Positions 9,626 through 38,598 of a stretch of DNA of 64,000 bases are shown here, in pieces; the first letter of the stretch is position 1; every line of letters begins with the position of its first letter. The notes beneath the pieces are model-generated. The model was not told the origin of the DNA and did no database searches. It saw nothing but the letters and a program-made list of their open reading frames with translations. The DNA is taken from IMG/VR virus record IMGVR_UViG_3300032223_002435, positions 2,604-66,603 of that record. One strand, given 5' to 3'. The position numbers and the translations under genes were made by a program. The stretch comes from a virus.

Positions 9626-9984
9626 TCGGTGATTTCTTGTGCGGGGGTTGGGTTGAACCAAGTGTCGACTTCGATACCGATGCCCATGCGGCCTCGGATG
9701 GAGGAGAGCTCCTTGAGCGAGAAAGATCCCCACTCGCCCTCAAATCCTTGGACATACCCAAAACAGATGTCAGAGCCATCCCACTCTTGGACATACCAAG
9801 TAAATGAGCCGGAGGGATCGAACAGCTTTACGCGGAGCGTTGTGTCCTTGGTCGAGCCATTCTCGTCGATATTGTCATCGGAGAAAGGCACTTTCTGAAG
9901 GCGGCACGCCTTTTGCATTAGGGCTAGTTTATTTGCCCCGTAGGTAACTCCTGACTGATTGATGTGGTCGGTTAGGTGGATCAT
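9622..9984 (-). CDS. DUF2958-family protein
   Basis: VKLFDPSGSFTWYVQEWD...FGYVQG..EWGSFSLKEL. Confidence 0.8.
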   Translation of the reverse strand: MIHLTDHINQSGVTYGANKLALMQKACRLQKVPFSDDNIDENGSTKDTTLRVKLFDPSGSFTWYVQEWDGSDICFGYVQGFEGEWGSFSLKELSSIRGRMGIGIEVDTWFNPTPAQEITE

Positions 9985-18766: not shown

Positions 18767-19015
18767 ATGGCTTCACTCGAATGGATGGAAATCTACCGGA
18801 CTTACTCTCCGGCGGAACTTGATGCGGAGATCATCGCGCTCAAAGGGCAGGCCACCCTCTACACAAGCCAGACTATGGGTGAAAAATCCTACGCCAAAGA
18901 TTTGGTGATGGTTCAAAACCGGCTTCAGGCAGCCGTCCGTGTTCGAAATGAGAGGTCGAGTCGTTACACCAATCCGTCCTATGGCGTTCCTGACTTCTCC
19001 AGCGGAGTAAACTAA
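18767..19015 (+). CDS. gpW-like head-tail adaptor
   Basis: Small helical protein immediately before a lambda-type portal; YTSQTMGEKSYAK hairpin. Confidence 0.65.
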   Translation: MASLEWMEIYRTYSPAELDAEIIALKGQATLYTSQTMGEKSYAKDLVMVQNRLQAAVRVRNERSSRYTNPSYGVPDFSSGVN

Positions 19016-20754
19016 TGAGCGCAAAGATCAATTTCCTAGACAGAGCAATCAGTTTTGTTTCCCCAGAGGCCGGTGTTCGTCGCGGCATGGCTCGGTCACA
19101 GCTTCGGTTGTTTGGTTACGATGCGGCTAATCCTGGCACAAAGCGTGGGCGTTCTGGAAGTGCATCCAAAAACGCTTCTTCCGAAAACTGGCGTAGTGCT
19201 CGCGACCGCATAAACCTCATGTGGGATAGCCGCGATGTCGTGCGAAATTTTGCCATTCTCAGAGGCATGGTTGCTAGGATCGTGCAGTATGTCTGTGACG
19301 GAACCAGCTATATTTCGCAGACCGGCGATGAGGGGGTTGATGGGGCATACCAAGATTACTTCAACCAGTGGGCAAAGAACGCCGACATAACAGGGCGCCA
19401 CAATTTTAGCGACCTGGTGACTATGGCCTTCTGGGCCATGCTTGTGGATGGCGATCATGGCTGGAACATGCTGACCATGCCGGTCGGGGGGGCGCCGACA
19501 ATTAAGATCCAACCGATTGAGGCCGACCGCATCGGGAATGTGTATAACCCTGCGGAGACGAACGAGGGAAATAAGATTGGCGGCATCTTGGTCGGCGACA
19601 TGGGCGAGCCCTTGGCATACGAGATCTACAAGCGTGGCCGGCTCAACGTCCAATACACCTTTGAGCAAGAGGTGCCGGCAGAGCAGTTCATCCATCTCTT
19701 TGACCCTACCCGAGTCGATCAGTATCGAGGCATTACCGCCCTCGCTACGGCAATCGCCCCCGCCCGCGACCTGTACGAGATCTACGAGTTCGAGATACAA
19801 GCGGCGAAGTGGCAAGTCGGCCACGCTGGCGTGATCCGAGTAGCAGATCCCTTCAAACAAGGCTCGGTCAGCCAATGGGACGGCAATACGGAGCCTGTGA
19901 CGAGCACTGGGGTCGGAACTGTCCAGATGGAGCCCGGCAAGATCCTGCGGCTCACGCAAGGCGAGGATGTGACCTTCTCCCCTGGCACGAACCGACCCAA
20001 CGGAGCATTCCTCAACCTCGTGCAAACAATGGTCAGGGAAATGGCCATGGCGCTGAATATGCCCTACGGCTTCCTCTACGACATGAGCACGTTCGGAGGC
20101 CATGCCAGCCGCATCGAGATCGCTCAGGCACAGCGTTGCATCCGTCGCTTCCAGAAGCTCCTCAAGGAGCAAGCCCTAGACCCCGTCCGCAATGCCGTGC
20201 TGGGGCTCGGCATCAGCGAGGGCGTCATCCCTGCCCACCCCCAATGGCAGAACGGCCGCTGGGGCTTTGGTGCCAGCCTCTCAGGCGACTACGGCAACGA
20301 CACAGCCGCCAACCTCCAGAAGTTGCAAGCCGGCCTCATCACTGCAAGCGACCTCATCTCCGAAGGAGGGCAAACCTTTGAAGAAGTAACCCGCCGCCAA
20401 GCCTCTGAAGTGCAGTATATGCAGAGAGTAGCGGCCGAGACAGGTGTGCCGATCGAACTCTTCACGACCCGCCTCTCCGGTGCCACCGAACTGCTGGCCG
20501 CCATGAACACGCCGCCACCTGCTCCCCCTGCCGGCTTAGTAGAAGCTGGCACGGACGTGAAGCCCATGATCGACATCCTCAAGAATGTCGGAGACGGCGT
20601 GATGGATCGTCAGAGTGCCATCAACACCCTCATGCAGATGTACGGCATGAGCAAAGCCGAGGCCGACAAGATCGTGCCAGAGTACCAAGAACCAGAGGTA
20701 GTTGCTGCTCCTGCGACACCCTCCAAGCCAGCCGATAAGGCTAAAGAGAAATGA
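19015..20754 (+). CDS. portal protein, lambda family
   Basis: GYDAA, SRDVVRN, DITGR, LVDGD, IEADRI, IHLFDPTRVDQYRGIT. Confidence 0.93.
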   Translation: MSAKINFLDRAISFVSPEAGVRRGMARSQLRLFGYDAANPGTKRGRSGSASKNASSENWRSARDRINLMWDSRDVVRNFAILRGMVARIVQYVCDGTSYISQTGDEGVDGAYQDYFNQWAKNADITGRHNFSDLVTMAFWAMLVDGDHGWNMLTMPVGGAPTIKIQPIEADRIGNVYNPAETNEGNKIGGILVGDMGEPLAYEIYKRGRLNVQYTFEQEVPAEQFIHLFDPTRVDQYRGITALATAIAPARDLYEIYEFEIQAAKWQVGHAGVIRVADPFKQGSVSQWDGNTEPVTSTGVGTVQMEPGKILRLTQGEDVTFSPGTNRPNGAFLNLVQTMVREMAMALNMPYGFLYDMSTFGGHASRIEIAQAQRCIRRFQKLLKEQALDPVRNAVLGLGISEGVIPAHPQWQNGRWGFGASLSGDYGNDTAANLQKLQAGLITASDLISEGGQTFEEVTRRQASEVQYMQRVAAETGVPIELFTTRLSGATELLAAMNTPPPAPPAGLVEAGTDVKPMIDILKNVGDGVMDRQSAINTLMQMYGMSKAEADKIVPEYQEPEVVAAPATPSKPADKAKEK

Positions 20755-23700
20755 GTGAATTATTTCGCAAGATAGAGGAGGCCGCGCGCCTTGGTAAAAA
20801 GAAAGGTCGCTCAGGCCGACTTGTTCCCAATCGTTCCGAGCTGTTCCCCCCACGCCCTAACCCCCTCCCCCCGAGTGATAAACGCTGGGATGAGGGGCTA
20901 GAGGGGATTCGCCAAATAAAAGCGGCTCTTGCGAGTGGAAAAAAGGAGTTTTCTGCCCTAAGCGATACCGAGAAGGCCGTTTGGAGGCATTACTTCTCTA
21001 GGGAGTTGACCGCCCTCCTAAAAGGAATGAAGCAATTCCAGTCTTACGCTAAGACTCCAGAAGAGGAGCGTCATGGCCTTTTAAAAACAGCCATCGGAGC
21101 CGCTGGCCTTGCCGCTGGCCTAACTGGAGCCGGTCACGCACTTAAGGGGACTGTTGCCGCCGCCGAACGTGCTGACATTGCTCGCAACGCTGTGAATCGC
21201 GTCGTTCGTGCCCAGCGGAACGCTAAAGCCGCCGCCATGGGTGTTGCCGCTGAGAAAGCCAAGGGAGCCAAGACCGCCGCAAAAGCTCGATACAAGGCCG
21301 GTAATGCCAGCTTCAAGAAAGCCGCTTCAAACCCGAATCTCTCCAAGGGAGAGAAGGCCGCATTCAAGCGTGCTCAAACTCGCTGGCAGGAGGCAAATCC
21401 CAACAACGAATTCGAGACCGTCATTGTTCAAAACCAGAAGCGTGATGCTCTTTCCAAGATTCGTGATGCTGCCAGCCTTGCCGCCAGCGTGGGATCGCTG
21501 GGCCTTTTGGGCTACGTCGGTTATCGCGGGCACGGGCTATACAAAAAGGTTTCCAAGGAAATCCCCAAGGTTGCCGCAACATTTCATGAGCACGCCCCCG
21601 CCGTTGCCGCACACGCCAAGGAAACCATGTCCAAGGTTTCGAGCGCGGCAGATGCTATCAAGGCAACCGCAGCCTCTGTGAAAAACGGACCTATCGCTGA
21701 CGGAGCCCCAAACGTGCTGAAGCGCGATAAGAAAGCGTTTTCTGACGAGAGGAAGCATTCGGTTCTTCTTCCCTTGATTGGGGGTGCCGCCATAGGGGCT
21801 GGAGCTGTCGCTATCCCCCAAGTGGCAAGGGCCGCCCGTCGCGTGGAAAAAGTTGCTAAAACCAATCTTCGGAAGGCAGGAAATGTGGCTGAATCTGTGG
21901 GTAGGACCCAGGATAATGTCAAGCACAGCACGTCGATCTATGCTGACCTTGGCAGAATCTATGGCGAGGCCAAGGGTGGCATTTACAACATCCTTCATCC
22001 CATCAATACATGGAAAGAAACCAAAGCTGGTTTTAAAGCCGGGATGAAGGGCAAAAAAAGCTATGCAACTCGCCCTCGCCCCGATTGGGCATTGTCGGCA
22101 AAATTGAAGATTAAGGAACTTGCTGAGGATTTCCGTCGCTATGAAGATGGCGTGCCATTTAACGGTAGGGTAGCCCACGATCGTTTCATCAAGACAATCC
22201 ATGAGGGGGATCTTGACCGCCGTGATCGGAATATCGTTCACGCCGCCGTTGCCGGCGGCCTAGCTGGAGCCCTTGTTCGTGGGCGCAAGCCAGTTCTCAA
22301 CAAGGTCGCTATTGGAGCCGCCCTCGGTGCAGGGGGCGTCATAGCCGTTCGCGGTGCTACTAATCATAGCCGCGATATTTATGGAGATCGCCCCCGCTGG
22401 GCAAAGCAGGCAGAAAACATCCCTGCACTTGCTGGTACAGCCGCGATTGCTGGCCTAGCCGCCAAGAGAGCAAAGCTGTTTGCTCGGAAGAATATGGTCA
22501 GGGCGCTGGCTAACCCTCACTTTTTTGAAAAGCAGTCTAATCCAACTATCAAGGCTGCTATTTTAGGCGGAAGCACAGGAGCAATCCTTGGGGCTATTCC
22601 TGGGTTAAAAATGAAATCAACGCTTGCCGGAACCCTTACGAGCATTGGAAGAGGTGCTGCCTTGGGAGGATCCCTTGCTGGAGGCGGTACCGCAATCGGA
22701 ACGGCTATTCTTGGTAAACCTAAAAATCATGAGGGCGCTCCAGTAACGAAAAGGGCCGCTCTTGGAGGAGCTATTGTTGGCGGCATTCTTGGAGGCACTG
22801 GCGTAGTTGCCGCGAGGAAATTCCCCGCATCCGTCAAGTGGACTGGCATCAACCTTGATAAACTTGCCAATCCCAAAACAGGATGGCGACCGGCCGCCTT
22901 CATGAAGAAGGCACCCCTTCCATTGGCAGCCGCCGCTGGGGCTGGCGCTGGCGCTGTAGTGGGTGGATCACACGCCGCAGATGAGGGGCAAGAAGTGGAT
23001 ACAGTGAATTCTCTTCAGGGAAAAAAGAAATTCTTTGAAGAATTCCGTGGCTATTCGCCATACGACGACGTAGCCGATGCGCGCAAACAAGCGTTCCATG
23101 CAAGTGGCGTCACTGCCGCCGTGGGTATGGCCGCCGCCGCAGGCCTCGGCTATCGCGGTGGATCTAAAGCTCAATTTGCGCGGACTGCCTCTCGTGTAAA
23201 GAAGTCGTTTAAAGAGACGAAAACCGCAAAGGCTTCCGCAAGAGCATGGCGTTTTGCCAGCCAGCAAGATTCCCAGCGTGCATCTAGGGCGGAAGCTCAA
23301 GCTAGGGATTGGGAGAATAAATACCGCAACGCTTCCTCGTCATCCAAGGGGGCAAGCAATTCTTCCCGCCAAGGCCCCCCTCCCCGTCATCGAGCCAAAG
23401 GCCCAACCAACCCGCACGCCGGCACTGCAAAAGCCGAGAAATGGGAGAAATGGCAGTCTATGAAACGAACAGCTTCCGAAAGCAATCACGAGGGGGAGCG
23501 TACCGCCGCTCAAGCCGCCGCTGATAAATGGCAGAAGAAATACAACCTCGCTCGCAAGATCAAGACCACACTCAAGGAGTTTGGTTTCTACAACCAGCCT
23601 CGCCGCGCTGGCGAGCAAGTCGGAACCGATAAGAACAACAACCCTCGCTATAGCCGCGAGCGCGGAACCTTTGCTAGCCCTGTTCGCTCGGCATACGGAG

Positions 23701-24476
23701 TTGAAGGGGATCTCCTATCAAACCAAGACGGAACCATGCCCACATTCGGTCAGGCGCAAATGATTCGCGGATTCTATAACGAAGGCAAGGGTATCCACAA
23801 GTGGGGCACTCGTGCCGCGCGCCTAGCCGGCGATACTGGAGATGTTTTTGCTGGCAACCCTCGCAAGCGTGATGCTTCTGGTCGCCCCCAAAAGCGCGAA
23901 TGGGAAAAGTCTTGGTTCAAAAATGCCGCTGGAGCCGCCGCTGCCGGTGGAGCCCTTGCTGGGGGGGCGTTTGTGACCAACAATACAGCTTGGGGACGAA
24001 AAAACATTCAGGGGAGACTTAAAAAGATTATTCGATCAGCCGCTAAACGGGGTTATCGGATCTTTTCCTCCAAGGTTAAACCTCACTTCTTTGACGAGTG
24101 GGCGGCCTATAATGGTTGGGATGTTCGCGATCCACGGGGCCGATCGGCCCGAGTGTTTGCGCCAGGCTCCCGCGCTCGCTACCGCCGCGAAAAAGAGTGG
24201 CATGAGAAAAAGGAAAACCGAGACCTTCTCTGGAAGGTAACGGCTGGCACGGCCGGAATTGGCGGAGCCGCCGTTGGCATATTAGCCGCGCGTAAACACG
24301 CCGGCCTTCCTGTGAACCCCTTTAGAACCGGCGGAGCAAAAGGCGTGTTCGACATGAAGGGCAACCCTGTTAGCGCCAAAGCTGGGCCTCGCTATCGTTC
24401 TAGCGTTTTCCCACCAGGGCATCCCGAAGAAGCGAAAGAGAGCATCCGCAAAAACGGATTTCACGTTGTAAAGTAA
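20751..24476 (+). CDS. large modular basic protein with many Gly-zipper hydrophobic segments; putative packaged polyprotein
   Basis: 1241 aa; repeated GxxxG segments separated by KKEFS/NNEFE/KKAFS/KELA/PHFF/KEFG linkers; in-frame internal start at 21027. Confidence 0.8.
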   Translation: MSELFRKIEEAARLGKKKGRSGRLVPNRSELFPPRPNPLPPSDKRWDEGLEGIRQIKAALASGKKEFSALSDTEKAVWRHYFSRELTALLKGMKQFQSYAKTPEEERHGLLKTAIGAAGLAAGLTGAGHALKGTVAAAERADIARNAVNRVVRAQRNAKAAAMGVAAEKAKGAKTAAKARYKAGNASFKKAASNPNLSKGEKAAFKRAQTRWQEANPNNEFETVIVQNQKRDALSKIRDAASLAASVGSLGLLGYVGYRGHGLYKKVSKEIPKVAATFHEHAPAVAAHAKETMSKVSSAADAIKATAASVKNGPIADGAPNVLKRDKKAFSDERKHSVLLPLIGGAAIGAGAVAIPQVARAARRVEKVAKTNLRKAGNVAESVGRTQDNVKHSTSIYADLGRIYGEAKGGIYNILHPINTWKETKAGFKAGMKGKKSYATRPRPDWALSAKLKIKELAEDFRRYEDGVPFNGRVAHDRFIKTIHEGDLDRRDRNIVHAAVAGGLAGALVRGRKPVLNKVAIGAALGAGGVIAVRGATNHSRDIYGDRPRWAKQAENIPALAGTAAIAGLAAKRAKLFARKNMVRALANPHFFEKQSNPTIKAAILGGSTGAILGAIPGLKMKSTLAGTLTSIGRGAALGGSLAGGGTAIGTAILGKPKNHEGAPVTKRAALGGAIVGGILGGTGVVAARKFPASVKWTGINLDKLANPKTGWRPAAFMKKAPLPLAAAAGAGAGAVVGGSHAADEGQEVDTVNSLQGKKKFFEEFRGYSPYDDVADARKQAFHASGVTAAVGMAAAAGLGYRGGSKAQFARTASRVKKSFKETKTAKASARAWRFASQQDSQRASRAEAQARDWENKYRNASSSSKGASNSSRQGPPPRHRAKGPTNPHAGTAKAEKWEKWQSMKRTASESNHEGERTAAQAAADKWQKKYNLARKIKTTLKEFGFYNQPRRAGEQVGTDKNNNPRYSRERGTFASPVRSAYGVEGDLLSNQDGTMPTFGQAQMIRGFYNEGKGIHKWGTRAARLAGDTGDVFAGNPRKRDASGRPQKREWEKSWFKNAAGAAAAGGALAGGAFVTNNTAWGRKNIQGRLKKIIRSAAKRGYRIFSSKVKPHFFDEWAAYNGWDVRDPRGRSARVFAPGSRARYRREKEWHEKKENRDLLWKVTAGTAGIGGAAVGILAARKHAGLPVNPFRTGGAKGVFDMKGNPVSAKAGPRYRSSVFPPGHPEEAKESIRKNGFHVVK

Positions 24477-24500
24477 TAGTTGACCAACCTCATAACCATC

Positions 24501-25463
24501 ATGAACACACATTTTGATCGCCTTATCGAACTATCTTCTAATTGCAAAGAATTTGGGGGCATTCCCATTACTCCACAGGAGGCCGCTCGTAAGAAGGGTC
24601 AGACGCCGCAAGGAAATGTGTCTCGCGCGGTTGGAACTAACCTCTTCATGCCTCTTGCGAGTGGGTATATCGGCGTTCCAGCGTCGGTTCACAATGCCGT
24701 AGACGCCGAGGCTGCTGGGCAAGTTTATCGCAAGCGCGACGCATACAAGGATGGCTGGAAACAAACAGGATCTATTATTGGTGGCGTCGCCGCCGCCGGG
24801 GCCGCTGGGGCTGGCGGGTCTTTGGCGGGTCACAAGATTGAAGAAAAGCTAGCTGAGCGAGCCGGGCGCAATTTAATGATTTCTCCATCAATTGTTCATG
24901 AACGAGCTCAAACAGCCGGCCTTATTGGAGCCGGACTTGGTTTGGCTGGCGGAGCGATTGGTGGCTACAAGTGGGCTCGAAATGCTGGTAAAAAGCGCAT
25001 CGAGTCCAACAAGCAGATGTCTGCTCTTGATCGCCTGACCGAGCTTTCTCGCAAGATCGAGATGGGCTTTTTCAATCCGACTAAGCAAGTTCCCGATTAT
25101 GAGGACGGCCAGTTCAATGGAATGAAAACTTCCGTCAACCCCGTCGGAGTCGTTGGCGATATCGCCGCCGCCGGTGCTGTTGGTGGAGCGGGATACCTTG
25201 GACACAAGGCTGTAATGGGAACCTATGGACAGCATCCCGCTACTCAGGGACTCAACGCTAGCCTTGGTGGCGGCGCTGGAAAGCCAATGAATATTCCCGT
25301 AAAGGACGCATATGCCAACCTGGGGAACGACCTCAAGGCTGGAGCCAAGTCCGCTTGGACAGGCGCATCACAAGTAGGATCCAAACTCGGCCCTGCCGGA
25401 AGCAAGGTTTCGGGGCTTGCTGGCATTCTCGGCAAACTCCGTAATGCCGCTGCCTTTGCTTAA
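24501..25463 (+). CDS. two-module Gly-zipper cargo-type protein
   Basis: ATG 21 nt after TTGAC; FDRLIELS...KEFG and LDRLTELS...GFF linkers. Confidence 0.8.
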   Translation: MNTHFDRLIELSSNCKEFGGIPITPQEAARKKGQTPQGNVSRAVGTNLFMPLASGYIGVPASVHNAVDAEAAGQVYRKRDAYKDGWKQTGSIIGGVAAAGAAGAGGSLAGHKIEEKLAERAGRNLMISPSIVHERAQTAGLIGAGLGLAGGAIGGYKWARNAGKKRIESNKQMSALDRLTELSRKIEMGFFNPTKQVPDYEDGQFNGMKTSVNPVGVVGDIAAAGAVGGAGYLGHKAVMGTYGQHPATQGLNASLGGGAGKPMNIPVKDAYANLGNDLKAGAKSAWTGASQVGSKLGPAGSKVSGLAGILGKLRNAAAFA

Positions 25464-25481
25464 TTTCAACAACCAACTACC

Positions 25482-25667
25482 ATGAGCAACATCAATACAT
25501 CCTCAGCTTGGGACTCCATCAAGACTTACCTTGCTAACTTCACGCACGGACTCGATTCCGAGATCAAGCATATCGAAGAGAAGCTCGGCCTCATCAAGGT
25601 CGAGGCTCCTAAAGAAGTTAAGGCCCCTAAAGCCGCCAAGGTTGAGGCCGCTTCCGAAGAGGCTTAA
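25482..25667 (+). CDS. small head-region protein
   Basis: 61 aa, CA-rich leader, KAPKAAK tail. Confidence 0.65.
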   Translation: MSNINTSSAWDSIKTYLANFTHGLDSEIKHIEEKLGLIKVEAPKEVKAPKAAKVEAASEEA

Positions 25668-25669
25668 TC

Positions 25670-26842
25670 ATGCCAGACACGCGCCCCAGAAATGCAGAGG
25701 GTCAATTCTCCCCCGAGACGGGTGGAGGAGCTAATCCTGGCTCGTTTCAGGCTGCGTACAACCCAGCGGTAATTATGCAAAACGATTTAAATCGCAAAGC
25801 TATTCTTGCCGCTGTTAATAAGCGCAAGCAGCAGACTCGGGGCGTAGAAGTCACAGAGGCAAGCGGTCCTTCTGATACAATTCTTTCGAGGAAGGATTTT
25901 GAAGGCATGAAATGCTGGGATGGCTATCAGGCGAAGGGAAAGAAAAAAGGCAAAAATGGCAAGATGGTTAATAATTGCGTTAAACTATCTTTCATCGGCC
26001 GCCTGACTGAACTCGCCGAAAAAACCGATCGGCTCAATCCGCACGCAACCACTGCGGCATTAGCGGCTCCAGCCGCCGTTGGTCTCGGCGTTAGCATTCC
26101 TACGTTAGGTGCTGTAATTGGAAATCCGTTTGGAGAGGGGCATCGAGAAGCAACATCGCAAGAGAAAAAAGTTTATAATCACATTGTAAAAAATGCAAAA
26201 AAAGAAGGCATCGGGGTTCACACCTCAAGTCATAAATACATGCCTGGTTTCGCTTGGAATCATTCAGGAAAAGAAGATGGAGTTTTTACCCAGATTCAAA
26301 AAATGGGAATTGAAAGCCTGACCAGAGATAACGGCAGTAAAAGCACTCGCGGCGTTGCTATTGGGGAAAACGTACACCCTGCAATGAAGTCGGGGGTTCT
26401 AGCCCATGAAATTGGACACGTTTCTGGAAATCCACTTGTGCACTCCGGCTGGGGACGTGGTATCGGAAGGCAAGCATCTGGAATTGGGGCTCTTTATGCT
26501 TCGGCTGGAACATCCGATCAAAATAAGGCAAGGAATGCAGCCATCATTGGAACAATCGCATCCGCCCCAGAGATGGCATCTGAAATAGACGCCTCTGTTC
26601 GAGGCCACGCTGTTTTAAGAAATGCCCATAAGGCAACAAAGGTAAAAATGGGAGTTCTCGACCACCTTAAGCCCGGGGTCGGTATTGCTTCGTATGGAGC
26701 CGTAGCTGCCGCTCCAGCACTTGCATACGAAGTGAAAAAGCATCTTGGTGGATATAAGCAGAAAAAAGACTTCGCTTTCCTCGGCCGCCTTACTGAGCTC
26801 TCTGCCTGGAGCAAAACTCTCCGCAAGGCAAGCAAGGGATGA
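25670..26842 (+). CDS. modular cargo-type protein with CWxGY...NCV motif and HExxH zinc-peptidase-like module
   Basis: PRNAEGQF; CWDGY..NCVK; FIGRLTELA...LAHEIGH...EIDASVRG...FLGRLTELS. Confidence 0.8.
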   Translation: MPDTRPRNAEGQFSPETGGGANPGSFQAAYNPAVIMQNDLNRKAILAAVNKRKQQTRGVEVTEASGPSDTILSRKDFEGMKCWDGYQAKGKKKGKNGKMVNNCVKLSFIGRLTELAEKTDRLNPHATTAALAAPAAVGLGVSIPTLGAVIGNPFGEGHREATSQEKKVYNHIVKNAKKEGIGVHTSSHKYMPGFAWNHSGKEDGVFTQIQKMGIESLTRDNGSKSTRGVAIGENVHPAMKSGVLAHEIGHVSGNPLVHSGWGRGIGRQASGIGALYASAGTSDQNKARNAAIIGTIASAPEMASEIDASVRGHAVLRNAHKATKVKMGVLDHLKPGVGIASYGAVAAAPALAYEVKKHLGGYKQKKDFAFLGRLTELSAWSKTLRKASKG

Positions 26843-26864
26843 GTTGACGCCCCATGCAATTTGC

Positions 26865-28160
26865 ATGGACACCAAGTTTTTTGAGCAACTCGTAGGAAAG
26901 GTAGATCCCGTTTCTGGGGTTATCCACGGAGTATCCGTTATTACCGGAGGAGTGACAGCTCGAGGCCACGAACTTGAGGTCGACAATAAAACTCTTGAGC
27001 AACTTTTTGAGTGCGCCTGCAAGATGGGCAAGGTTCCTGTTAAATGGAATCACCGCTCCGGGGCTGATGCCGTTGCTGGATACCTGGAGAACTTCCGCAT
27101 CAAGGATCACAAACTTCTGGGTGATTGGCATCTTCTCAAGAGCCACGCCCAATATGAGCAAGCCCTTGAGCTTGCTCAGCGTATGCCTGAGTGCATCGGC
27201 CTGAGTGCCGCATTCATGGGTGAGGACGAAAAACGCTCCGATGGAAAAACTGCGGCACGTTGCAGGGAATTAATTTCCGTGGATGTGGTCGCAAATCCAG
27301 CGGCCAATCCGAATGGTTTCTTTGAAGCTAATTTCGGGATGTCAGTTGACACGCAAACTAACAAGCAAACTCTTATGAGCACACCAAACAACCAGCAGCC
27401 ACAGGCCGAGCCCTCCCTCAAGGATGTGCTTGACCAACTCACCGCGATCAACGCTCGCCTTGATCAGCAAGACCAGTTCAACGCCGAACTCCAGCAGTCC
27501 ACGCAGGGCCAGCAGGAGCCAGATGGCGATGAAAACGAAATCACCATCGAGGATCTTCTGACCCTCACCCCAGAGCAGATCAGTCAGCTTGTTGCTGAAG
27601 GTCACATGACCGAGGATGACGCCGCTGGCATTCATGCACTGCAGGCCGAGGCCATGGCCGGTGATGATGAAGCCGAGGAGGCTGAAACCGAGCCCTCCGA
27701 AGAGGCCGGCGAACTCGCCGGTGCCGGCGTGGAAACCTCTGCTGGTGGCGGATCTGAGCTTTCCGCTCTCCGCGCCCAGGTCAAGGAGCTCTCTGCCAAG
27801 TTTGAGAGCAAGCAGGCCTCCGAGGACAACGCCACGATCGAGCATCACTTTGCAACCATCGAGGGAACCCTCACCGAGCTTTCTTCCCAGAATGCCTCGC
27901 TAAATGAACTTAACAGCAAGCTTCAGGCTCGTTGCGACGCACAGGCACACGCCCTGCGTACCGGAACCCGCCCCGTTGCTTTCTCTGCTGAGGGTGACAT
28001 CTCCTCCAGCAACCTCGAACTCTCCGATTTTGAGAAACTCGTAAAGAATTTCGAGTCGCAGGGGAAAACCAAGGCCGAGGCCATCCGTCTGGCTCACAAA
28101 GAGAGCCCCGATGCCCACGCCAAACACCTCTCTGACCGTCGCGAGGCGCGCTCAGTGTAA
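26865..28160 (+). CDS. prohead protease fused to acidic scaffold
   Basis: GVSVIT.G.ARGH, WNH, IGLS, SVDVVANPAANPNG; acidic coiled-coil C-half; precedes capsid genes; ATG 21 nt after TTGAC. Confidence 0.85.
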   Translation: MDTKFFEQLVGKVDPVSGVIHGVSVITGGVTARGHELEVDNKTLEQLFECACKMGKVPVKWNHRSGADAVAGYLENFRIKDHKLLGDWHLLKSHAQYEQALELAQRMPECIGLSAAFMGEDEKRSDGKTAARCRELISVDVVANPAANPNGFFEANFGMSVDTQTNKQTLMSTPNNQQPQAEPSLKDVLDQLTAINARLDQQDQFNAELQQSTQGQQEPDGDENEITIEDLLTLTPEQISQLVAEGHMTEDDAAGIHALQAEAMAGDDEAEEAETEPSEEAGELAGAGVETSAGGGSELSALRAQVKELSAKFESKQASEDNATIEHHFATIEGTLTELSSQNASLNELNSKLQARCDAQAHALRTGTRPVAFSAEGDISSSNLELSDFEKLVKNFESQGKTKAEAIRLAHKESPDAHAKHLSDRREARSV

Positions 28161-28197: not shown

Positions 28198-28557
28198 ATG
28201 AGCAACTTCAACACCGTTGTTTCTGCAATTGCCGCCTCCGACCTATCTGGGAAGGAAGGCGTGCTCCTCAAGCTCACCTCCAGCGGCGTAGCCGTCGCCG
28301 GCGCGAGCGATATCGTCATTGGAACCCTCGTCCGTGGTGCCGTCGCCGGCGCTGCTGTCGCAGTGTTCCTTTCCCACGCCAATGGCATCTCCTTCGTCCA
28401 AGTCGGAAATGATACGGCGATCGCCATCGGCGATTCCCTCGATCAGGCCGCAAACGGACAGGTCGTGAAGCACACCACCGGAACCGTCGTTGCCTACGCC
28501 TGGGAGGCAGCTCCCGCCGGAAGCTCCAACGGCCAGATCCGCGCACTCTTCATCTAA
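28198..28557 (+). CDS. capsid decoration/cement protein
   Basis: 119-aa Ala/Gly/Val-rich protein between scaffold and capsid; AIAIGD...ANGQ...AWEAA. Confidence 0.75.
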   Translation: MSNFNTVVSAIAASDLSGKEGVLLKLTSSGVAVAGASDIVIGTLVRGAVAGAAVAVFLSHANGISFVQVGNDTAIAIGDSLDQAANGQVVKHTTGTVVAYAWEAAPAGSSNGQIRALFI

Positions 28558-28577: not shown

Positions 28578-29534
28578 ATGTACAACACCACCGATTCAGT
28601 CCCACGTCAGGACATCAGCACCCTCCTAATGGAGGCTGTTCATCAGAAGGAGCACTACATTGGTCAGTCGCTTCTCCCCGTCTATTCCAGCCCCAAGGAG
28701 ATCGGCCGCTATCCCAAGTTCCGTGTCGCCAAGGGTGAGCTTCTCAAGAAGGAGAGCCAGAAGCGCAATTCTACTGGCACCTACAACGAGAGCGAAGAGA
28801 GCTTTGAGTGGGACAGCTACTCGACCGAGGAGTTCGGTCATGAGAAGCGTGTCGACGACAAGGTTCGCAAGGAGATGAAGGATTTCTTCGATGCCGAAAT
28901 GGTCACCGCTAACTTCTGCATGCAGAAGGTGATGCTCGATTACGAGCTGGCTACCTCCCGAGCCATCATGGATCCCTCGACCTTCAACCTCAGCAACGGA
29001 TCGGTCGCTTACACTGAGACAAACCTCAACACAATTGACGTTCCCCATGACATCAATTATGCGCTTGAGAGCCTTTCCAGCGTCGGCGAGACCCCCAACA
29101 CGCTGGTTCTCAGCCTGTCGGTGTTCAACCTGATCAAGCGTTCCAAGCTCATGCAGACCTATCTGTATGGCTTCCTCAACACCACTCAGGGCGGTTCCAA
29201 CATCACCACCCAAGTGCTCGGAGATGCTTTCGGTATCCCCAACGTCGTTGTGGCTCGCAAGACCTACGATGCCGCCATCAAGGGCAAGACCAGCATCCAG
29301 AATGTGTGGGGTAATGACTACATGTTCCTTGGCGATGTCCAGGGCGGCGACTTCATGGCCGGCGGCGTGGGCCGCACGATCATCTGGGACGCTGACAGCG
29401 AGGGTGGCCTGTTCACCACGGATCAGTATCGTGACGAGGCTCGTCGCGGCGACAAGATCCGAGTTCGCTCGAACCGCACCGTCAAGATCATCAACCCCAA
29501 CGCCGGTATCCTTATCGGCACGCAGTGGGCATAA
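28578..29534 (+). CDS. major capsid protein (HK97 fold, lambda gpE-like)
   Basis: 318 aa; position, PNTLVLS motif, strongly biased codons, followed by a terminator. Confidence 0.85.
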   Translation: MYNTTDSVPRQDISTLLMEAVHQKEHYIGQSLLPVYSSPKEIGRYPKFRVAKGELLKKESQKRNSTGTYNESEESFEWDSYSTEEFGHEKRVDDKVRKEMKDFFDAEMVTANFCMQKVMLDYELATSRAIMDPSTFNLSNGSVAYTETNLNTIDVPHDINYALESLSSVGETPNTLVLSLSVFNLIKRSKLMQTYLYGFLNTTQGGSNITTQVLGDAFGIPNVVVARKTYDAAIKGKTSIQNVWGNDYMFLGDVQGGDFMAGGVGRTIIWDADSEGGLFTTDQYRDEARRGDKIRVRSNRTVKIINPNAGILIGTQWA

Positions 29535-29635: not shown

Positions 29636-29998
29636 ATGAGCAGCAGCAGCTTTGACGACGCGATGGAAATTGCAGATACGGCCCTATTTTCCGAAATGGA
29701 TTCCCTCGTCATTCTGGAAGGCCGATCCGTCCGCGCCATCATCTCTCCCATGAGCGGGTACACCACAGAGAGTGACGGGAATGGTGGGTTCTCCCGAGTA
29801 GAGGGCGCCAAGCTGGAAGTCCTCTCAACCGATATGGCTGCCGCTGAGAATTGGGGCGGTCCTCGTGTCGGCATGATGGTCGCTGTCCCGACGACCCCCA
29901 CCCAGCACTACCGCGTCACGGGGATCCGCAATAACGGCTTCACCACCACGCTCACCTGCGGCTCCACCTCCGGTACCGCGCCGCGCTCCCAATTCTAA
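29636..29998 (+). CDS. head-closure (gpFII-like) protein, putative
   Basis: 120 aa, beta-rich, directly after capsid; TTGAC 21 nt upstream. Confidence 0.55.
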   Translation: MSSSSFDDAMEIADTALFSEMDSLVILEGRSVRAIISPMSGYTTESDGNGGFSRVEGAKLEVLSTDMAAAENWGGPRVGMMVAVPTTPTQHYRVTGIRNNGFTTTLTCGSTSGTAPRSQF

Positions 29999-30000
29999 CA

Positions 30001-30402
30001 ATGAATGTCCGATCCCTGATCGAAGTCGAGATGGCGGCATCTCTCTCTGAAAGCAATGTCATTTCCTGCCCCGCCCTCCCAGGGGCCTCGGATGGGGTCA
30101 GGCCCGATCGCTATGTCTCTGTCGTTGCCACGGAGGCGGAGCATCGCGGAAGCGCTCATCTGGTGACCTTGGAGTTCCGCATCGCGGCCCCTGCGGCTGA
30201 GGCGATTGACCCCATGAGGGAAACTACCGACGCCGTTTATCTCTGGGCCACGGGTGAGGATTCTCCTCTCAAGGAGTATGAGGCAAACGGGCTTAAAATC
30301 CTCGGCCATTCACCGGCCAACCTCAGGAGTGAAGTGCGCGATTTCCAGAGAGCCGAGATCCTGGAGTTCAAGGTCGGGGCGGCTACGAGTGCCGCTTCGT
30401 AG
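30001..30402 (+). CDS. tail completion/terminator-like protein, putative
   Basis: Size and synteny only. Confidence 0.45.
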   Translation: MNVRSLIEVEMAASLSESNVISCPALPGASDGVRPDRYVSVVATEAEHRGSAHLVTLEFRIAAPAAEAIDPMRETTDAVYLWATGEDSPLKEYEANGLKILGHSPANLRSEVRDFQRAEILEFKVGAATSAAS

Positions 30403-30424
30403 TTGACACAATCTCAATAGTATT

Positions 30425-30757
30425 ATGAGCATTGCAAATCACGGACAAGGAATGGGAAATTATAAGTTTGGAACCGGAGACGAAAACATTGCGCAGCTTT
30501 CGGTTGAGAAATCCTACACTGTTCAAATCGACGTAGTAGATGGAACAGGCCTACTTAAAGACATCATGTATGGTGGCGAGGAGAATAAAATCAGTGCTAC
30601 CAAATACGAAACGGGCGGAGGAGTTCCAGATCTTGGATCCGCTTTTTCGGCAGGAGGCGTCAATGGATACGTCACAAAAGCTGCCTCAATCAGGAGCAAC
30701 GAGGACGTATCAAAAATACAAATCGAAGCAATTGGGTCACCCTCTGTCGGATCATAA
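30425..30757 (+). CDS. small tail-tube-like protein (paralog 1)
   Basis: 110 aa; DGTG...PDLGSAFS...SNEDVSKIQIEA, similar to the next gene. Confidence 0.5.
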   Translation: MSIANHGQGMGNYKFGTGDENIAQLSVEKSYTVQIDVVDGTGLLKDIMYGGEENKISATKYETGGGVPDLGSAFSAGGVNGYVTKAASIRSNEDVSKIQIEAIGSPSVGS

Positions 30758-30769
30758 CCAAATAAAAAT

Positions 30770-31093
30770 ATGGCACTTAACTCTTTCAACGGCACGACCG
30801 CCGGCGCCGGAGGCGTCAGCGTTAACGGCATTAGCGTAGTTACCCAGGTATCTGAGGGATCAGAATATGGGAACATCGCTCGTGCAAAAGATTCCACTGG
30901 TGAAATCGCCGCTATCTATATGAGCAAAGGCACTTATACCTCTGAAGTTTCCGGGTACGCCAATACCTTCGCGGCGCCTGGCCTGGGTGGCAGCATCTCT
31001 GGTGTTGCGGGAGATCAGAAGATCATGAGTTCCAAGCTTGAAGCCAGCAATCAGGATTTCGTAAAGGTAAGCGTTACAGGCAAGGGCCTTTAA
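30770..31093 (+). CDS. small tail-tube-like protein (paralog 2)
   Basis: 107 aa; DSTG...PGLGGSIS...SNQDFVKVSVTG. Confidence 0.5.
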   Translation: MALNSFNGTTAGAGGVSVNGISVVTQVSEGSEYGNIARAKDSTGEIAAIYMSKGTYTSEVSGYANTFAAPGLGGSISGVAGDQKIMSSKLEASNQDFVKVSVTGKGL

Positions 31094-31102
31094 TGAGTCA
31101 AC

Positions 31103-31900
31103 TTGGTTGAGAATTATTACATTTTCGACGAGCGTTTTGCGGAAAGTTTTTTACATTCCGCAAAACCAGTTCGTGTTTTTGGTTTTAAGTTAAAGCCATT
31201 TTCAAACTGGCATCGCTTACAATTGGAGTGGGTGAACTCTAAGATCCTGATTGGTGGAGCAAAAAAATGGGATGCCTATCTGGCAGCTAAAATCTGTACC
31301 AGCCAATACCCTCAAAAAACAAACACCACAGAATTGGGGGCAGTGTCCTCAATTCTATGGCATATCTTTGTTTATTTTTTTAATGCCAATAAGGAAATAT
31401 CGAAACTTTACGACTATATTGAAGATTATAACTCTCCGCCAAAACTATGGGGTGGAAATGGGTCGTCTTTAAAAAAACTGTCAGAGGCATATCACGATAT
31501 GTTCTTGATAACCAAAGACCCGGATTATCAGACCAGCGCGAATAAAGCGGCACACGACGCCTTTCTGCAAGAAAATCAAGATTCACAGATTGATGATACA
31601 CTTTCGCAAGTATCCTATTACTGCAAAGTTGCATCGCGTCCTCCCAAGGAAGCCTGGAATATGCCAGTTGGAGAATTGGCTTGGATGAACGTTTGTTTTG
31701 CAAAAATGGAGGGTGGGAAAGTGGATATCTGGACCCCTATGGACGAAGAGCGCTTTAAGGAAAACCTGAAAGTGCGACAACAAAAGATAGCCGACATAGC
31801 AGATGAATTAATAAAAGAGCACCCAAATACCCCAACGCCCCATGCTACGGGGTTGGCCGCGATCAAATACTGGAAGCAGGTTATCGATCGCAATAGATAA
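31103..31900 (+). CDS. tail assembly chaperone, putative
   Basis: Between tube-like genes and tape measure; EAWNMPVG motif; start uncertain. Confidence 0.5.
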   Translation: MVENYYIFDERFAESFLHSAKPVRVFGFKLKPFSNWHRLQLEWVNSKILIGGAKKWDAYLAAKICTSQYPQKTNTTELGAVSSILWHIFVYFFNANKEISKLYDYIEDYNSPPKLWGGNGSSLKKLSEAYHDMFLITKDPDYQTSANKAAHDAFLQENQDSQIDDTLSQVSYYCKVASRPPKEAWNMPVGELAWMNVCFAKMEGGKVDIWTPMDEERFKENLKVRQQKIADIADELIKEHPNTPTPHATGLAAIKYWKQVIDRNR

Positions 31901-31924
31901 TTGTTGACGATCGAGGGTTCTGGT

Positions 31925-34900
31925 ATGCCGCCGACAGCCACTGCACCGAGGTCACCGCAAGCACCCACAGAGCCTTGGAAGGCTTTCAAAAACATCCTTG
32001 CTGAAACTGTTGGTCCAATCGCAGTCCTTGGTATTGCCTCTCAAAAACTGCTTTCAACCATCGCATCTACAGCGATGAACGCAAAGAAATTGCAGGACGC
32101 AATCAATACCTCATCCGGCGCAGAACAGCTTAGAAAGCAATTTGAGGGCATCGGACTCTCCGCCGCCCAAGCAAAACAAAAAGTTGAGGAACTTGCCCAG
32201 GCATCAGCAAATGGGCCATTCAACCTAGATTCTTTGGGGGCGGCTTCAAAAAACTTAAAAATCGTCGGCGGAGACGCAGTAAATACCGCTGCCAATCTCA
32301 AGAAAGTGGCAGACATGGCTGCGGCCACAGGATCTCCGATCGACACAATGGCCACGGCTTATGCTCGCCTAATTGCGTCCATGAAGGGGGGCGGCGGTGC
32401 AGAGGCGGCCGCCTCGCTGGCGGAAATGGGAGCCATTTCTAGCGATACGGCCGAAAAGATTAACAACATTACTGCCGCTGGTGGATCGTTCTCAGAAAAG
32501 ATGATAGCTCTTTCTGGTGATCTTTCCAAATCGACCGGAGCTGCCAATGCCCTGGGTGGAACCCTGGCGGGTCTTCAGGCTAAACTCGCATCGCTTCAAG
32601 CCAATAGCGCCAGAAATATAGGCGACATGTTTATCGAAGGGGAAAAAGCAGCCCTTCGAGCACAAATATCCTTTCAAAAAGTTAAAAGCGCACTTGACGA
32701 GGCGGCCTCCGCCCCTTTTGCCGCGATTAGCGAGGGATTTAATGGAATAAAAGAATCTATTGGCAAATTCTTATCCTCTTCTGATTCTGTTAAGGGTATT
32801 GTCTTGATTTTTAATGCCATATTTGCAGCCGCTGCCGGCATTTTTGTCACGACATCCGTAGCCGCATTGGGGGTTGCAGCAACTCTTATCAGAATGGGTT
32901 CAGCCGCATTTACAGCGGCTGGAGGAATGACCGCTCTAAATGCAGTCACCAGAAGCTGGGTTGGTCTGGGGGCAGGCGCTTTGGGGTTCATTTCGGCGAT
33001 TGTTACGGCATTGGTACTTTTTGGGGGCCGCGCCTTACAAACCTCGCGCGAGGTTGATCAACTGATTAAAAAGAACAAAGAACTTGCCGCAAGCGGTGCG
33101 CAAGGCTCTTCAAAGATCGAAGCAATGGTTCCAGCCGTCAAAGGCGGTACAGTTGAGGACAGGCAAAAAGCTTTAGAAACAGCCGATGCGAGTGTTGATG
33201 AGGCCAAGACTCGCCTTGAATCGGCGCAAAAAACACAGCAAGGCGAATCTAAAAAAGATACGAACTGGAATCGAGCAGTTACAATGGATTGGTTTGGAGT
33301 AGCTGCTCGGGAACGACAAGCTAGTGCAGAGGGTGAGGTGAATTCAGCCTCGCAAGAGTTAAATAGAAGAAAAAATGCCAGATCTCAGATTGCTGCTATT
33401 TCTAGTAACGGACTCGGCCTTGATAGGGAACAATTACAAAAGAACTATCAGCGAAACGATATTATCGAGAATAGTCGAAATGCAGCCTTTGAGCGCCTTC
33501 AAGGGTCAGTCGATGTCGACTCAGCAGCCTCTATGGCTAAATCTGAAGTAGAACGGGCCACGAAAAAAGATGATAAAAACCAAATTGTTTCCAAGCAATC
33601 CTACGACGAGCGTACTAAAATAAACAATGCCAGCGGAAAAATAGCAAGGTCGGAAACTGCCCAAGAAAAAGAAAAGGCTTTTGAAGAACTAAAATCAATA
33701 GAAACCAAATCTGAAAGCGGTGGCATTCAAAAACAAATCGATTATAAAAAAAGTATTGTTGGCGAACAAACTATGCTTGAAAGCGAAAGCCGGGCTTCAA
33801 AAGCAGACTTACTGGAAAAAACCTTTGCAAGGGATAACCTTGAAAAGAGGTACGGATCCCAGATGCAGCAACGTGAAAAGTTTATTAAAGAGGGGGGCAG
33901 CGAGTCAGGGGCTGATAGTCTTTATGGCCCAGCAAACAACAATCTGATACAAGCACGAAAAGACGTAGAAGTGGCTAAACAAAGAGAAGCTGATATTAAT
34001 CTCCGAAAAAAACAAATCGATAAAAGGGCGACCTCTGAAGGGGATGTGTCTGGAAAAGCCATTCAGGAACTAGAAGTAAAACGAGATGCCGCATTAAAAA
34101 AAGAAGATCCAACCATATCTGCACAGCAGAAAGAGAATGCAATAAATAAAAGTCAAGCGGCTGCGGAAGCATTGGCAGCTCGAAATAACATGGTTCAACA
34201 GTCTCGAAATAAGGCTACTTTAGAATCACGACTAGCAAGCCTTTCAAGCGATGGTTCCGATGATGAATATAAGATCAACGCCGAAAGTGGATTAAACAGA
34301 TCCTCAAACGTCAAAGCACTAAATGCTGCTGTCGAATTAAAAAAGAAGGCTGACGAATACAATGCTTCAAGGGGTACTGACCAGGAACAAAAAAAACGCA
34401 AAGAGCTGGAAGTGGCTCAAGTGCAAGCCGCCGCCGCCGGAACCAATGGTCGCGGTGCTGAAGAGATCCAACAAGAGCTAGATGCCGAAAAACAAATTAC
34501 TGCTACCAAGCTTCAGGCGGCAAAAATCTCTGAATCTGCCGCAAAAGCAGAATATGAGGCATCCATGCGCAGGCTTAACGTCGAAAAACAGATTTCGCAA
34601 ATGAAAGTAGCTCAATCGAAGAGCGTAATCGAAGGATCTGAGTTTAAGGGCAAAACCGAAGGCGCTATCAATATGAATGGCGCCAAAAAAGAACTTGAAA
34701 GCCAACTAAAAGCACTTGAGGCATCGAAGGCAAAAGACGCCGCCTCGGCCGCTTACAAGGCCAACCCAAATGAGCAAAACAAGGCAAATCTTGATAACGC
34801 CAATGAGGCGGCTTCAGCGGCCGGAGTGGGTAATAGGCGTACTCGTGATCTGGAGGCATTGGTTCAATCTTCAAGCCGAGATTTGAGTGCAAAAAAAGAA

Positions 34901-35341: not shown

Positions 35342-35342
35342 T

Positions 35343-36062: not shown

Positions 36063-36065
36063 GCC

Positions 36066-38573: not shown

Positions 38574-38598
38574 TTGACGCTCGGCAAATCGGGTAGGT

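Follow-up and report, generated by a model that had tools for sequence, protein, structure and literature searches.

The DNA analysed here, called the window, is a 64,000-nucleotide stretch (bases 2604-66603) of the 66,603-bp virus record IMGVR_UViG_3300032223_002435, which has direct terminal repeats and is rated 100% complete. Our subject is a set of four tightly packed open reading frames (ORFs), all on the + strand, that fill the slot between the portal gene and a gene encoding a protease-scaffold fusion, and in particular the short peptide linkers that recur in three of them. The genes of this head region are as follows (lengths in amino acids, aa):

19015..20754, +, portal protein of the lambda family (Pfam Phage_portal_2, E 6.9e-49; phrog_21)
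20751..24476, +, ORF1, 1241 aa
24480..25463, +, ORF2, 327 aa from a TTG start (320 aa from the ATG at 24501)
25482..25667, +, ORF3, 61 aa, linker-free, with a homologue only in L003/L016 (2 of 17 related loci)
25670..26842, +, ORF4, 390 aa
26865..28160, +, protease-scaffold ORF, the ATG at 26865 being the best start
28198..28557, +, small head protein (phrog_673), likely start the M at 28198
28578..29534, +, major head protein (phrog_1005, E 1e-35)

The ATG of ORF1 (20751) overlaps the portal stop codon. An earlier reading made from the sequence only had put four ORFs of 1241, 320, 61 and 390 aa in this slot, and their coordinates, strand and flanking families agree with it (327 or 320 aa for ORF2, according to the start). 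Scans of Pfam, PHROGs and NCBIfam assign no family to ORF1, ORF2, ORF3 or the protease-scaffold ORF and recognise zero domains in ORF1, and sequence and profile searches of the PDB with ORF4 gave no match. The MuF profile (PF04233) has no match in the genome at E <= 10; the control matched in 8 of 14 genomes.

ORF1, ORF2 and ORF4, which we refer to as cargo proteins, are strongly basic (net charges +120, +14 and +23, respectively), and the protease-scaffold protein has a net charge of -35. Lys plus Arg make up 18% of ORF1, and Gly plus Ala make up 28-31% of ORF1 and ORF2 (28% in ORF1) and 25% of ORF4. Seventeen hydrophobic windows in ORF1 merge into about 13 Gly/Ala-rich segments, ORF2 has three such segments, and each cargo segment carries 3-10 small-xxx-small pairs (3-9 in ORF1). 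The cargo had been described as strings of basic, Gly-zipper hydrophobic modules; the charge and the small-xxx-small spacing agree with this, and only 3 of the 17 ORF1 windows attain a Kyte-Doolittle mean of 1.6. For that reason "moderately hydrophobic Gly/Ala helices" is safer wording for the ORF1 segments than "transmembrane". The linkers and other features of the cargo proteins lie at the following positions:

20940..21743, +, short N-terminal linker words of ORF1 (KKEFS 20940-20954, MKQFQ 21027-21041, NNEFE 21402-21416, KKAFS 21729-21743)
22092..22133, +, ORF1 linker aa 448-461 (LSAKL...KELAEDF), just 5' of module C; 16 alignment starts within 10 aa
22476..22529, +, ORF1 linker aa 576-593 (ending PHFFE), between modules C and D; 8 alignment starts and 5 ends within 10 aa
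23022..23045, +, ORF1 linker aa 758-765 (KKKFFEEF), end of module D; 22 alignment ends within 10 aa
23547..23588, +, ORF1 linker aa 933-946 (LARKIK..LKEFGF), a match to the composite expression below and nearest to the family consensus
24060..24095, +, ORF1 linker aa 1104-1115 (IFSSKVKPHFFD), before the GWDVRDPRG module; 24 alignment starts within 10 aa
24513-24560 (N-terminal), 25026-25076 (middle) and 25419-25460 (C-terminal end, ...AAAFA), +, ORF2 linkers
25670-25774, +, conserved N-terminal leader of ORF4
25883-25903 and 25991-26017, +, ORF4 linkers
25910-25984, +, two-Cys mini-module of ORF4 (aa 81-105), between these two linkers
26405-26419, +, HEIGH of the putative zincin-like domain of ORF4
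26765-26812, +, C-terminal linker helix of ORF4

All 14 linkers listed by the sequence-only reading, and the similar words in the scaffold, were recovered at their positions. Counts in the window compare 2,490 residues of cargo plus protease-scaffold with 17,966 residues of the other 75 called genes. Because the patterns were picked on the data they were tested on, the p-values (Fisher) are flattering: L[TI]EL[SA] occurs 5 times in cargo and protease-scaffold and 0 times in the rest (p 2.7e-5), FF[DEN] 6 and 3 times (p 2e-4), [KRN][EQ]F[GSDEQ] 5 and 2 times (p 4.5e-4) and [LIVF]xE[LF][SAGD] 8 and 15 times (p 0.004), and for none of the four was the observed count attained in 2000 composition-preserving shuffles. 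The sharpest element is x-x-R-L-[TI]-E-L-[SA], with two copies in ORF2, two in ORF4 and a T-L-T-E-L-S in the scaffold part; a profile built from the four copies found nothing further better than E ~1 among 465 six-frame ORFs (56,978 aa). The simpler K-x-F-[DEGSNQ] has 13 matches versus 36 (shuffle mean 4.4, maximum 13). At the DNA level the linker copies are detectable as imperfect repeats of 19-34 nt with 62-89% identity (families D5, D9, D10, D17 and D18), of which D5 and D10 connect the scaffold words to linkers of ORF2 and ORF4.

Two further short elements were noted near the linkers. A second motif, roughly R/P-x-x-[DEN]-G-x-F-[SAN]-[PG], stands at a variable distance after most linkers (ORF1 aa 462-472, 968-977 and 1123-1137; ORF2 aa 205-214; ORF4 aa 5-16) and is similar to the ORF4 leader and the GWDVRDPRGRSARVF core. 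The two-Cys mini-module of ORF4 is about 25 aa long (C-W-x-G-Y ... N-C-V) and by itself accounts for all of the matches of ORF4 to seven PHROG families of unknown function, which makes it a widespread element among phage proteins.

Are these linkers peculiar to one genome, or do they mark module borders in its relatives as well? The major head protein has 266 homologues, and alignment of 29 of them led to 17 related loci in IMG/VR, of which L011, L018 and L016 duplicate others and several end at the 10-kb flank. When the protease-scaffold, ORF4 or P0002 served alone as query, no locus was recovered from contigs of viral, genome or metagenome origin, and relatives were found only through the major-head-protein alignment; megablast and tblastn of the region against cultured phages likewise gave no match. 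The order protease-scaffold, small head protein, major head protein is identical in all 17 loci, each of which also has a protein that starts with the ORF4 leader. An ORF1 homologue of 785-1956 aa (several cut by the flank) is present in 16, L017 being the one without it. ORF2 has a homologue in 5 and ORF3 in 2 of the 17, and the portal gene is visible in 7.

ORF1 is a mosaic of about 10 modules. A HMMER scan with its residues 1-1200 matched 384 cluster representatives at E <= 1e-3 (94 at <= 1e-30), and at least six homology blocks recur independently (about aa 86-308, 350-460, 461-585, 593-760, 925-1100 and 1105-1192). We compared 300 ends of the best alignment stretches with the nine ORF1 linker points proposed earlier: 71 lie within 6 aa of one, with 24 expected (p 0.016), 87 within 10 aa, with 39 expected (p 0.04), and 111 within 15 aa, with 59 expected (p 0.065). 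The signal is carried by five linkers (aa 457, 592, 762, 1114 and, weakly, 944), and the relatives' coverage of ORF1 changes sharply at aa 455-462, the linker before module C. Additional block ends lie at about aa 965-1007, 1072-1100 and 1176-1197, beyond the linkers listed earlier.

The modules are also shuffled, fused and split. Blocks 461-585 (C) and 593-760 (D) follow each other as C then D in the window and as D then C in the proteins P0203 and P0205, and modules D (P0241, 196 aa) and E2 (P0206, 114 aa) occur as short proteins that start at the linker, some of them possibly contig-end fragments. The 625-aa P0203 carries a gp21-fold protease domain fused through a linker junction to an ORF4-type leader and modules D and C, with no scaffold. 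A word search found only two non-self homologues of ORF4, both of which keep its N-terminal ~60 aa and then differ in modules, joined by an R-L-[IT]-E-L-S ... E-F linker. The ORF4 leader (R-P-R-N-x-x-G-Q-F...) is N-terminal in 11 of 15 aligned rows, in ORFs that start M-x-D-x- or M-D-S- (L003 being among the 11 only if an in-frame M three residues upstream is its true start), and internal in the other 4, immediately behind a linker that ends F-D, L-D or F-A-D. The gene start thus takes the place of the linker F/L, which is expected if the mature end lies there. ORF2 linkers recur at homologous places in L002, L003/L016 and L004. The ORF1 homologue of L014 (L014:439-6309, 1956 aa) combines the Pfam domain InPase (PF18823, aa 240-369, E 1.7e-43), DUF6321 (aa 625-697, E 5.9e-13) and an HExxH module; K-x-F-[EAS] words lie 9-30 aa outside all four borders of InPase and DUF6321, and of its two R-R-H-E-I-x-x-S module copies one is without the second His. 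Comparison of module content among related phages, as suggested earlier, thus shows blocks that end at linkers and that vary in order, fusion and splitting.

Across the family the linker is composite, with a consensus of roughly L-S/A-A-K/R-L-R-x-L/V-K/R-x-F-D/G/E; junctions from relatives include L-S-A-K-L-R-G-L-K-E-F-G, L-A-A-R-L-R-G-V-K-N-F-D, F-S-A-K-L-K-K-L-R-E-L-D and F-S-A-R-L-R-T-I-K-F-F-E. The regular expression [FL][SA][ASR][KR][LIV].{2,8}?[FL][DEGNS] was counted in 15 non-redundant genomes, window included: the 39,079 cargo residues hold 31 matches, and all remaining 51,589 residues a single one. Shuffles that preserve protein composition (n=300) gave a mean of 1.2 matches and a maximum of 8, and the lone non-cargo match lies in an antisense ORF over the protease gene. 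The 31 matches stand before at least seven different downstream sequences and so are not one homologous site recounted; matches of the same type do share descent. Counted separately in 14 relatives, the FSAKL half occurs 47 times in cargo versus 5 in the rest and the KEF half 49 versus 10.

Several positions are conserved within the second half. The residue two before the F/L, which the expression leaves free, is K/R in 26 of the 31 matches, the F/L position itself is F in 27, and the residue after it is D in 14, G in 8, E in 6, S in 2 and N in 1; directly before the F/L stand E (11), F (9), N (5), L (4) and M, Q and Y (1 each). In the window linker nearest to the consensus (aa 933-946), L933, R935, L941, F944 and G945 are conserved at 58-74%. 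Among 120 distinct sequences of the GWDVRDPRG junction, F/L/I/Y stands at -9 in 105, D at -8 in 85, L/V/M at -12 in 72 and R/K at -13 in 57. This spacing of conserved, variable and conserved positions is such as would be read by a protease that binds its substrate as a strand. The claim that the linker is enriched over non-head proteins thus stands for the composite form, and fails in the relatives for two of the shorter words (FF[DEN] and L[TIV]EL[SA], below).

The protein encoded next to the cargo is a candidate for such a protease. Its parts are as follows:

26865..27314, +, predicted prohead protease domain (T4 gp21/assemblin fold; AlphaFold model, Foldseek, VIA-align)
26871-26885, +, linker core T-K-F-F-E at the protease N-terminus
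27315..27338, +, junction GFFEANFG between protease domain and scaffold (predicted local distance difference test, pLDDT, < 50 at residues 155-165)
27339..28160, +, acidic scaffold-like part, with the words VKELSA (27780-27797) and LTELS (27870-27884)

The ATG at 26865 is preferred as the start because the N-termini of relatives align there; the frame itself stays open for about 129 nt upstream (26736-26864), overlapping the end of ORF4 in another frame. A model of the protease domain (AlphaFold2, 48 homologues) has a pLDDT of 81 and a predicted template modelling score of 0.78. With this model Foldseek returns T4 gp21 (5jbl) first (E 9.3e-4), followed by herpesvirus proteases, and the best of 48,161 chains in VIA-align is again 5jbl_A (Z 12.0, root mean square deviation 3.1 Å over 132 aa), with the varicella-zoster virus protease as runner-up at Z 7.8; among the nearest ESM-Atlas clusters 26 of 30 are Peptidase_S77 (score 0.97). 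It replaced a first model from 11 sequences (pLDDT 53), whose PDB matches were meaningless and viral matches weak. Residues H35, H63, H89, H94 and S114 are invariant in the 48 sequences, and the catalytic His and Ser of gp21 are presumably spaced much like H63 and S114. The model thus agrees with the suggestion that a prohead protease lies beside the cargo genes.

This protein itself carries linker elements. K-x-F is found at the protease N-terminus in 9 of 11 relatives and [KH]-x-F in all 11, the protease/scaffold junction G-[FL]-[FL]-[EQ]-A is kept in 11 of 11, and V-[KR]-x-L-[SQ] in the scaffold is kept in 11 of 11, so that the idea that the scaffold shares the linker words is upheld (VKELSA and LTELS in the window). 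Profile searches of the genome with Pfam S77, S78, S78_2 and Mu-like_Pro gave no match at E <= 10, nor did one with S80, for which the control also matched nowhere, and with hhalign the protease alignment had no significant match to T4 gp21 or HK97 gp4. When the protease domain was modelled in complex with 50 aa of ORF1 that include a linker, the control-free prediction scored 0.02 against a mark of 0.32. The source names of three protease-scaffold homologues (P0295, P0323 and P0356) mention Verrucomicrobiota and Proteobacteria metagenome-assembled genomes. P0356 is encoded on a contig of 1.95 Mb, which may point the way to a host or a prophage.

A second candidate protease lies in the cargo itself. 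Residues 120-370 of ORF4 hold H-E-I-G-H, and L005, L006, L009 and L013 share a conserved A-H-E-x-G-H. The ORF1 homologues of L002, L003, L014 and L015 have another module, R-R-H-E-I-V-H, and altogether 11 of the 15 non-redundant genomes have an HExxH module in their cargo stretch. The Pfam M48 and M78 matches of ORF4 are below cut-off (E 0.024 and 0.038), and the domain has weak M48/M78/SprT-like neighbours and structural neighbours in the Atlas at TM scores of 0.35-0.44, which hint weakly at a zincin fold.

We propose the following explanation. ORF1, ORF2 and ORF4 would be the cargo or ejection proteins of an uncultured clade of tailed phages, encoded in the usual MuF slot. Each cargo chain may be read as independent modules of roughly 30-180 aa, most of them a basic stretch with 1-5 Gly/Ala-rich hydrophobic helices and some of them probably enzymes (the zincin-like HExxH domain; a pyrophosphatase in a relative). 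Before each module would stand a two-part linker, a basic amphipathic L/F-S/A-A-K/R-L... followed by a core [LVI]-[KR]-x-[FL] plus D/G/E. The cargo precursors would co-assemble with the protease-scaffold fusion in the prohead, where the gp21/assemblin-fold protease would cut the linker core, likely after F/L with K/R two residues upstream, and would also trim its own N-terminus, detach itself from the scaffold and cut the scaffold. A dozen or more small basic products might thereby be freed, to remain with the DNA and exit through the tail at infection; candidate roles for them are DNA charge neutralisation, an inner body, a membrane conduit and anti-defence, all of which are conjecture at present.

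The steps of this scheme differ in strength. Synteny, operon packing, extreme basic charge and clade-wide conservation make it very probable that ORF1, ORF2 and ORF4 are head-internal proteins. That the linker core is cut by the gp21-fold protease is a proposition for which the scales stand about level; the cut, if made, would most likely fall after F/L with K/R at P3. The sequence architecture is real and well supported: gene order, modularity, the linker and the protease fold are established here. Cleavage is a plausible reading, and like packaging, the scissile bond and the role of the products in the host it is inferred. A bolder form of the idea, which we offer tentatively and regard as distinctly less likely than cleavage as such, is a portable two-part tag. 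Its basic amphipathic helix would attach cargo to the scaffold or to the inside of the capsid, and the [LVI]-[KR]-x-[FL]|[DGE] next to it would be cut by the gp21-fold protease, with a specificity so far unreported for that fold.

A number of results weigh against cleavage at a shared linker by this protease. The T4-like site [LIVMF]xE is not enriched in the window's cargo (35 versus 282 matches, or 14.1 versus 15.7 per 1000 aa), and L/I-x-E as the sole cleavage motif was accordingly rejected; E precedes the F/L in only 11 of the 31 composite matches. In the relatives FF[DEN] (8 versus 21) and L[TIV]EL[SA] (7 versus 3) are not significantly enriched. Fewer than 10 relatives align at four of the nine ORF1 linkers (aa 64-68, 93-97, 218-222 and 327-331), mean identity inside the linkers (0.27-0.40) is not above the protein mean (0.42), and the strict composite expression is passed by only 21 of the 120 GWDVRDPRG junctions. 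A hidden Markov model and a position-specific scoring matrix of those 120 junctions failed to single out the window's other linkers, the matrix placing 7 of its top 40 positions in the cargo, which makes up 12% of the residues. Linkers also stand at the extreme ends of separate ORFs (the N-terminus of ORF2 and the C-termini of ORF2, ORF4, P0203 and P0205), where nothing needs to be separated, so cleavage alone cannot explain all of them. The N-terminal 165 aa of the protease ORF have no sequence or profile match in Pfam, NCBIfam or the PDB, and the zincin-like modules could do the cutting instead. Finally, tblastn of ORF1 against 50,697 phage records found no match, and the major head protein shares no more than 20-24% identity with its counterparts in cultured phages (of Burkholderia, Arthrobacter and Vibrio). 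The Burkholderia phages among these include Mu-like ones.

The terminal linkers just mentioned speak for a linker that is never cut and acts as a repeated docking or packing helix (on scaffold, capsid interior, portal or DNA) by which long multi-module chains are loaded. The similar words in the scaffold and the greater enrichment of the basic amphipathic half are in keeping with this, and the N4 virion RNA polymerase is a precedent for a protein packaged unprocessed (PMC5512222). Such docking would leave unexplained the conserved F/L-D/G/E core with K/R two residues upstream, the presence of the core at the protease N-terminus and at the low-confidence protease-scaffold junction, and the interchangeable fused and split gene forms at the linker, and we consider it doubtful, though deserving serious attention. 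It is improbable that the modules are separated by a different enzyme, either a zincin-like metallopeptidase of the cargo, acting inside the head or once ejected, or one of the host's proteases. HExxH modules do stand in conserved contexts in the cargo region of those 11 genomes, the ORF4 domain has its weak peptidase neighbours, and this very role is proposed by Iyer et al. for the MPTase domains of packaged polyvalent proteins (PMC5512222). On the other hand, HExxH is not seen in the stretches of the other 4 of the 15 genomes (several being cut by the 10-kb flank), the Pfam scores of ORF4 are below cut-off, and self-processing accounts better for the linker core that the serine-protease-fold protein carries. 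As for host enzymes, a Prp-type protease cuts after F-F in Firmicutes; cleavage of this kind was set aside, being unlikely if the hosts are of the Gram-negative lineages (Verrucomicrobiota or Proteobacteria) at which the source names hint.

The block ends at linkers and the strong mosaicism would also arise if the linker were mainly a recombination joint for swapping cassettes between phages, with no biochemical role of its own, as the boundary motifs of polymorphic toxins serve as cassette-swap joints, and the linker copies are indeed detectable as imperfect DNA repeats. Their DNA likeness, however, is so short and imperfect that it is no more than peptide similarity implies, and the conservation by residue class (K/R, F/L, D/G/E) points to selection on the peptide, which makes a pure recombination joint very unlikely. 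Nor is the K/R/A/G-rich, low-complexity composition of the cargo likely to generate the pattern: enrichment of a short word like K-x-F-[DEGSNQ] is no more than 2.6-fold, as an artefact would have it, but the composite count is far above the shuffle maximum and the L[TI]EL[SA] count was never matched in the 2000 shuffles, and the composition reading is close to refuted.

Outside the head region the window holds replication and other modules (1879-3819, 8036-9733 and 58538-62259), among them a SNF2-type helicase, a ParB-N protein, a PIF1-like helicase and a D5/PriCT-type primase-helicase. Nine of the ten ORFs 3' of the major head protein (29636-41208) have no PHROG match; a 1146-aa coiled-coil ORF with a hydrophobic block (31901-35341) is tape-measure-like. 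No terminase was identified among the genes of the window, which leaves out a 617-aa ORF that straddles its start.

Internal, ejected proteins are a main route by which phages bring early anti-defence and host-takeover functions into the cell. To our knowledge, the ways in which cargo finds the capsid and is processed there have been little studied except in T4 and the giant phages. The clade described here is abundant in metagenomes, as its 266 major-head-protein homologues and 384 ORF1-related cluster representatives attest, and the linker is a short, recurrent, sequence-defined junction that is directly testable. Should it prove to be a tag for targeting plus cleavage, it would represent a new specificity for the assemblin/gp21 protease fold, a polyprotein strategy in a tailed phage that would explain why modules are shuffled, fused and split in hundreds of uncultured phages, and a signal by which phages of small genome could readily load cargo: any module behind the tag would be loaded into an HK97-type capsid and freed as a separate ejected product, and the tag would be a natural tool for loading foreign proteins into capsids. 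Should the linker be uncut, it would still add a new repeat, for packing or docking, to what is known of very large head proteins.

How does this arrangement compare with known systems? To call it a candidate new system, as the sequence-only reading did, overstates the case: packaged multi-domain proteins with suggested in-head processing are known (PMC5512222), and so are internal proteins that bear targeting propeptides and are cut by a protease (PMC9026906, PMC10052503). The T4 protease gp21 recognises a short motif in the internal proteins, in Alt, in the scaffold and probably in its own chain, and cuts there; cargo is directed to the core by N-terminal propeptides (PMC9026906). The likeness to IPI-III and Alt is that of basic proteins packaged with DNA, in which a terminal peptide targets the protein and ends in a protease site (PMC9026906); for the window's cargo both properties are conjectural. 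Likewise gp21 has a consensus site near its own N-terminus, is processed C-terminally and chops the scaffold (PMC9026906), and the N-terminal core and junction of the gp21-fold protease modelled here parallel those self-processing sites. T4, in contrast, uses separate genes with one N-terminal propeptide and an L/I-x-E site, whereas here there are many modules per chain with internal linkers; the T4 site is Glu, and that proposed here is a conserved K/R-x-F/L followed by D/G/E, with no sequence-level likeness of the protease to gp21. By profile the protease also falls outside both Pfam S77 and S78, although the predicted fold is shared.

In giant phages such as phiKZ and SPN3US, a diverged gp21 homologue (SPN3US gp245, phiKZ gp175) acts much as gp21 does: it recognises a short motif in many head-internal proteins, those of the inner body or for ejection, and may cut one chain several times (PMC10052503). 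Those phages are 240-kb myoviruses with an A-x-E motif and mostly N-terminal propeptide removal (PMC10052503); the genome here is 66.6 kb, its protease is fused to the scaffold, and the release of many modules is proposed. MuF proteins, including SPP1 gp7, share the gene slot between portal and protease/scaffold, and MuF fusions are thought to deliver effectors (PMC5512222), but this genome has no MuF domain anywhere; the nearest cultured matches of its major head protein do include Burkholderia phages. The Dar proteins of P1 (DarA, Hdf and DdrB) are head-internal anti-defence proteins, of which DdrB is processed and has an MPTase domain (PMC5512222; PMC12810830, PMC9024508). They are likened to the present cargo by description only, and the accessible text of PMC5512222 reports no repeated linker in them.

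A further close parallel is with the polyvalent proteins of Iyer, Burroughs, Anand, de Souza and Aravind (2017). These are multi-domain proteins of very large size whose genes lie with those of the virion, and they are believed to be packaged and then injected; their most frequent domain is a zincin-like MPTase, some have an assemblin-like peptidase fused at the C-terminus, and processing in the head, or after injection by the MPTase domains, is suggested (PMC5512222). The cargo here likewise joins several unrelated domains per chain (at least six blocks in ORF1; InPase, DUF6321 and HExxH in L014), lies among virion or late genes between the portal and the protease-scaffold and major head proteins, includes the polyvalent InPase domain in L014 and, in P0203, fuses a protease domain to cargo modules. 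By context and by the domain repertoire of its relatives, the window's cargo appears to fall under the phage-type polyvalent proteins of Iyer et al. A recurring inter-module linker and Gly/Ala-rich basic hydrophobic modules are not described in the accessible text of that paper, in which the words "linker" and "transmembrane" are absent (PMC5512222), and full-text literature searches, whose scope was main text and not supplementary tables, turned up no account of phage head proteins in which a linker recurs between modules. Against that literature, what appears to be new in these polyvalent-like proteins is the recurrent linker combined with strings of Gly/Ala-rich basic modules.

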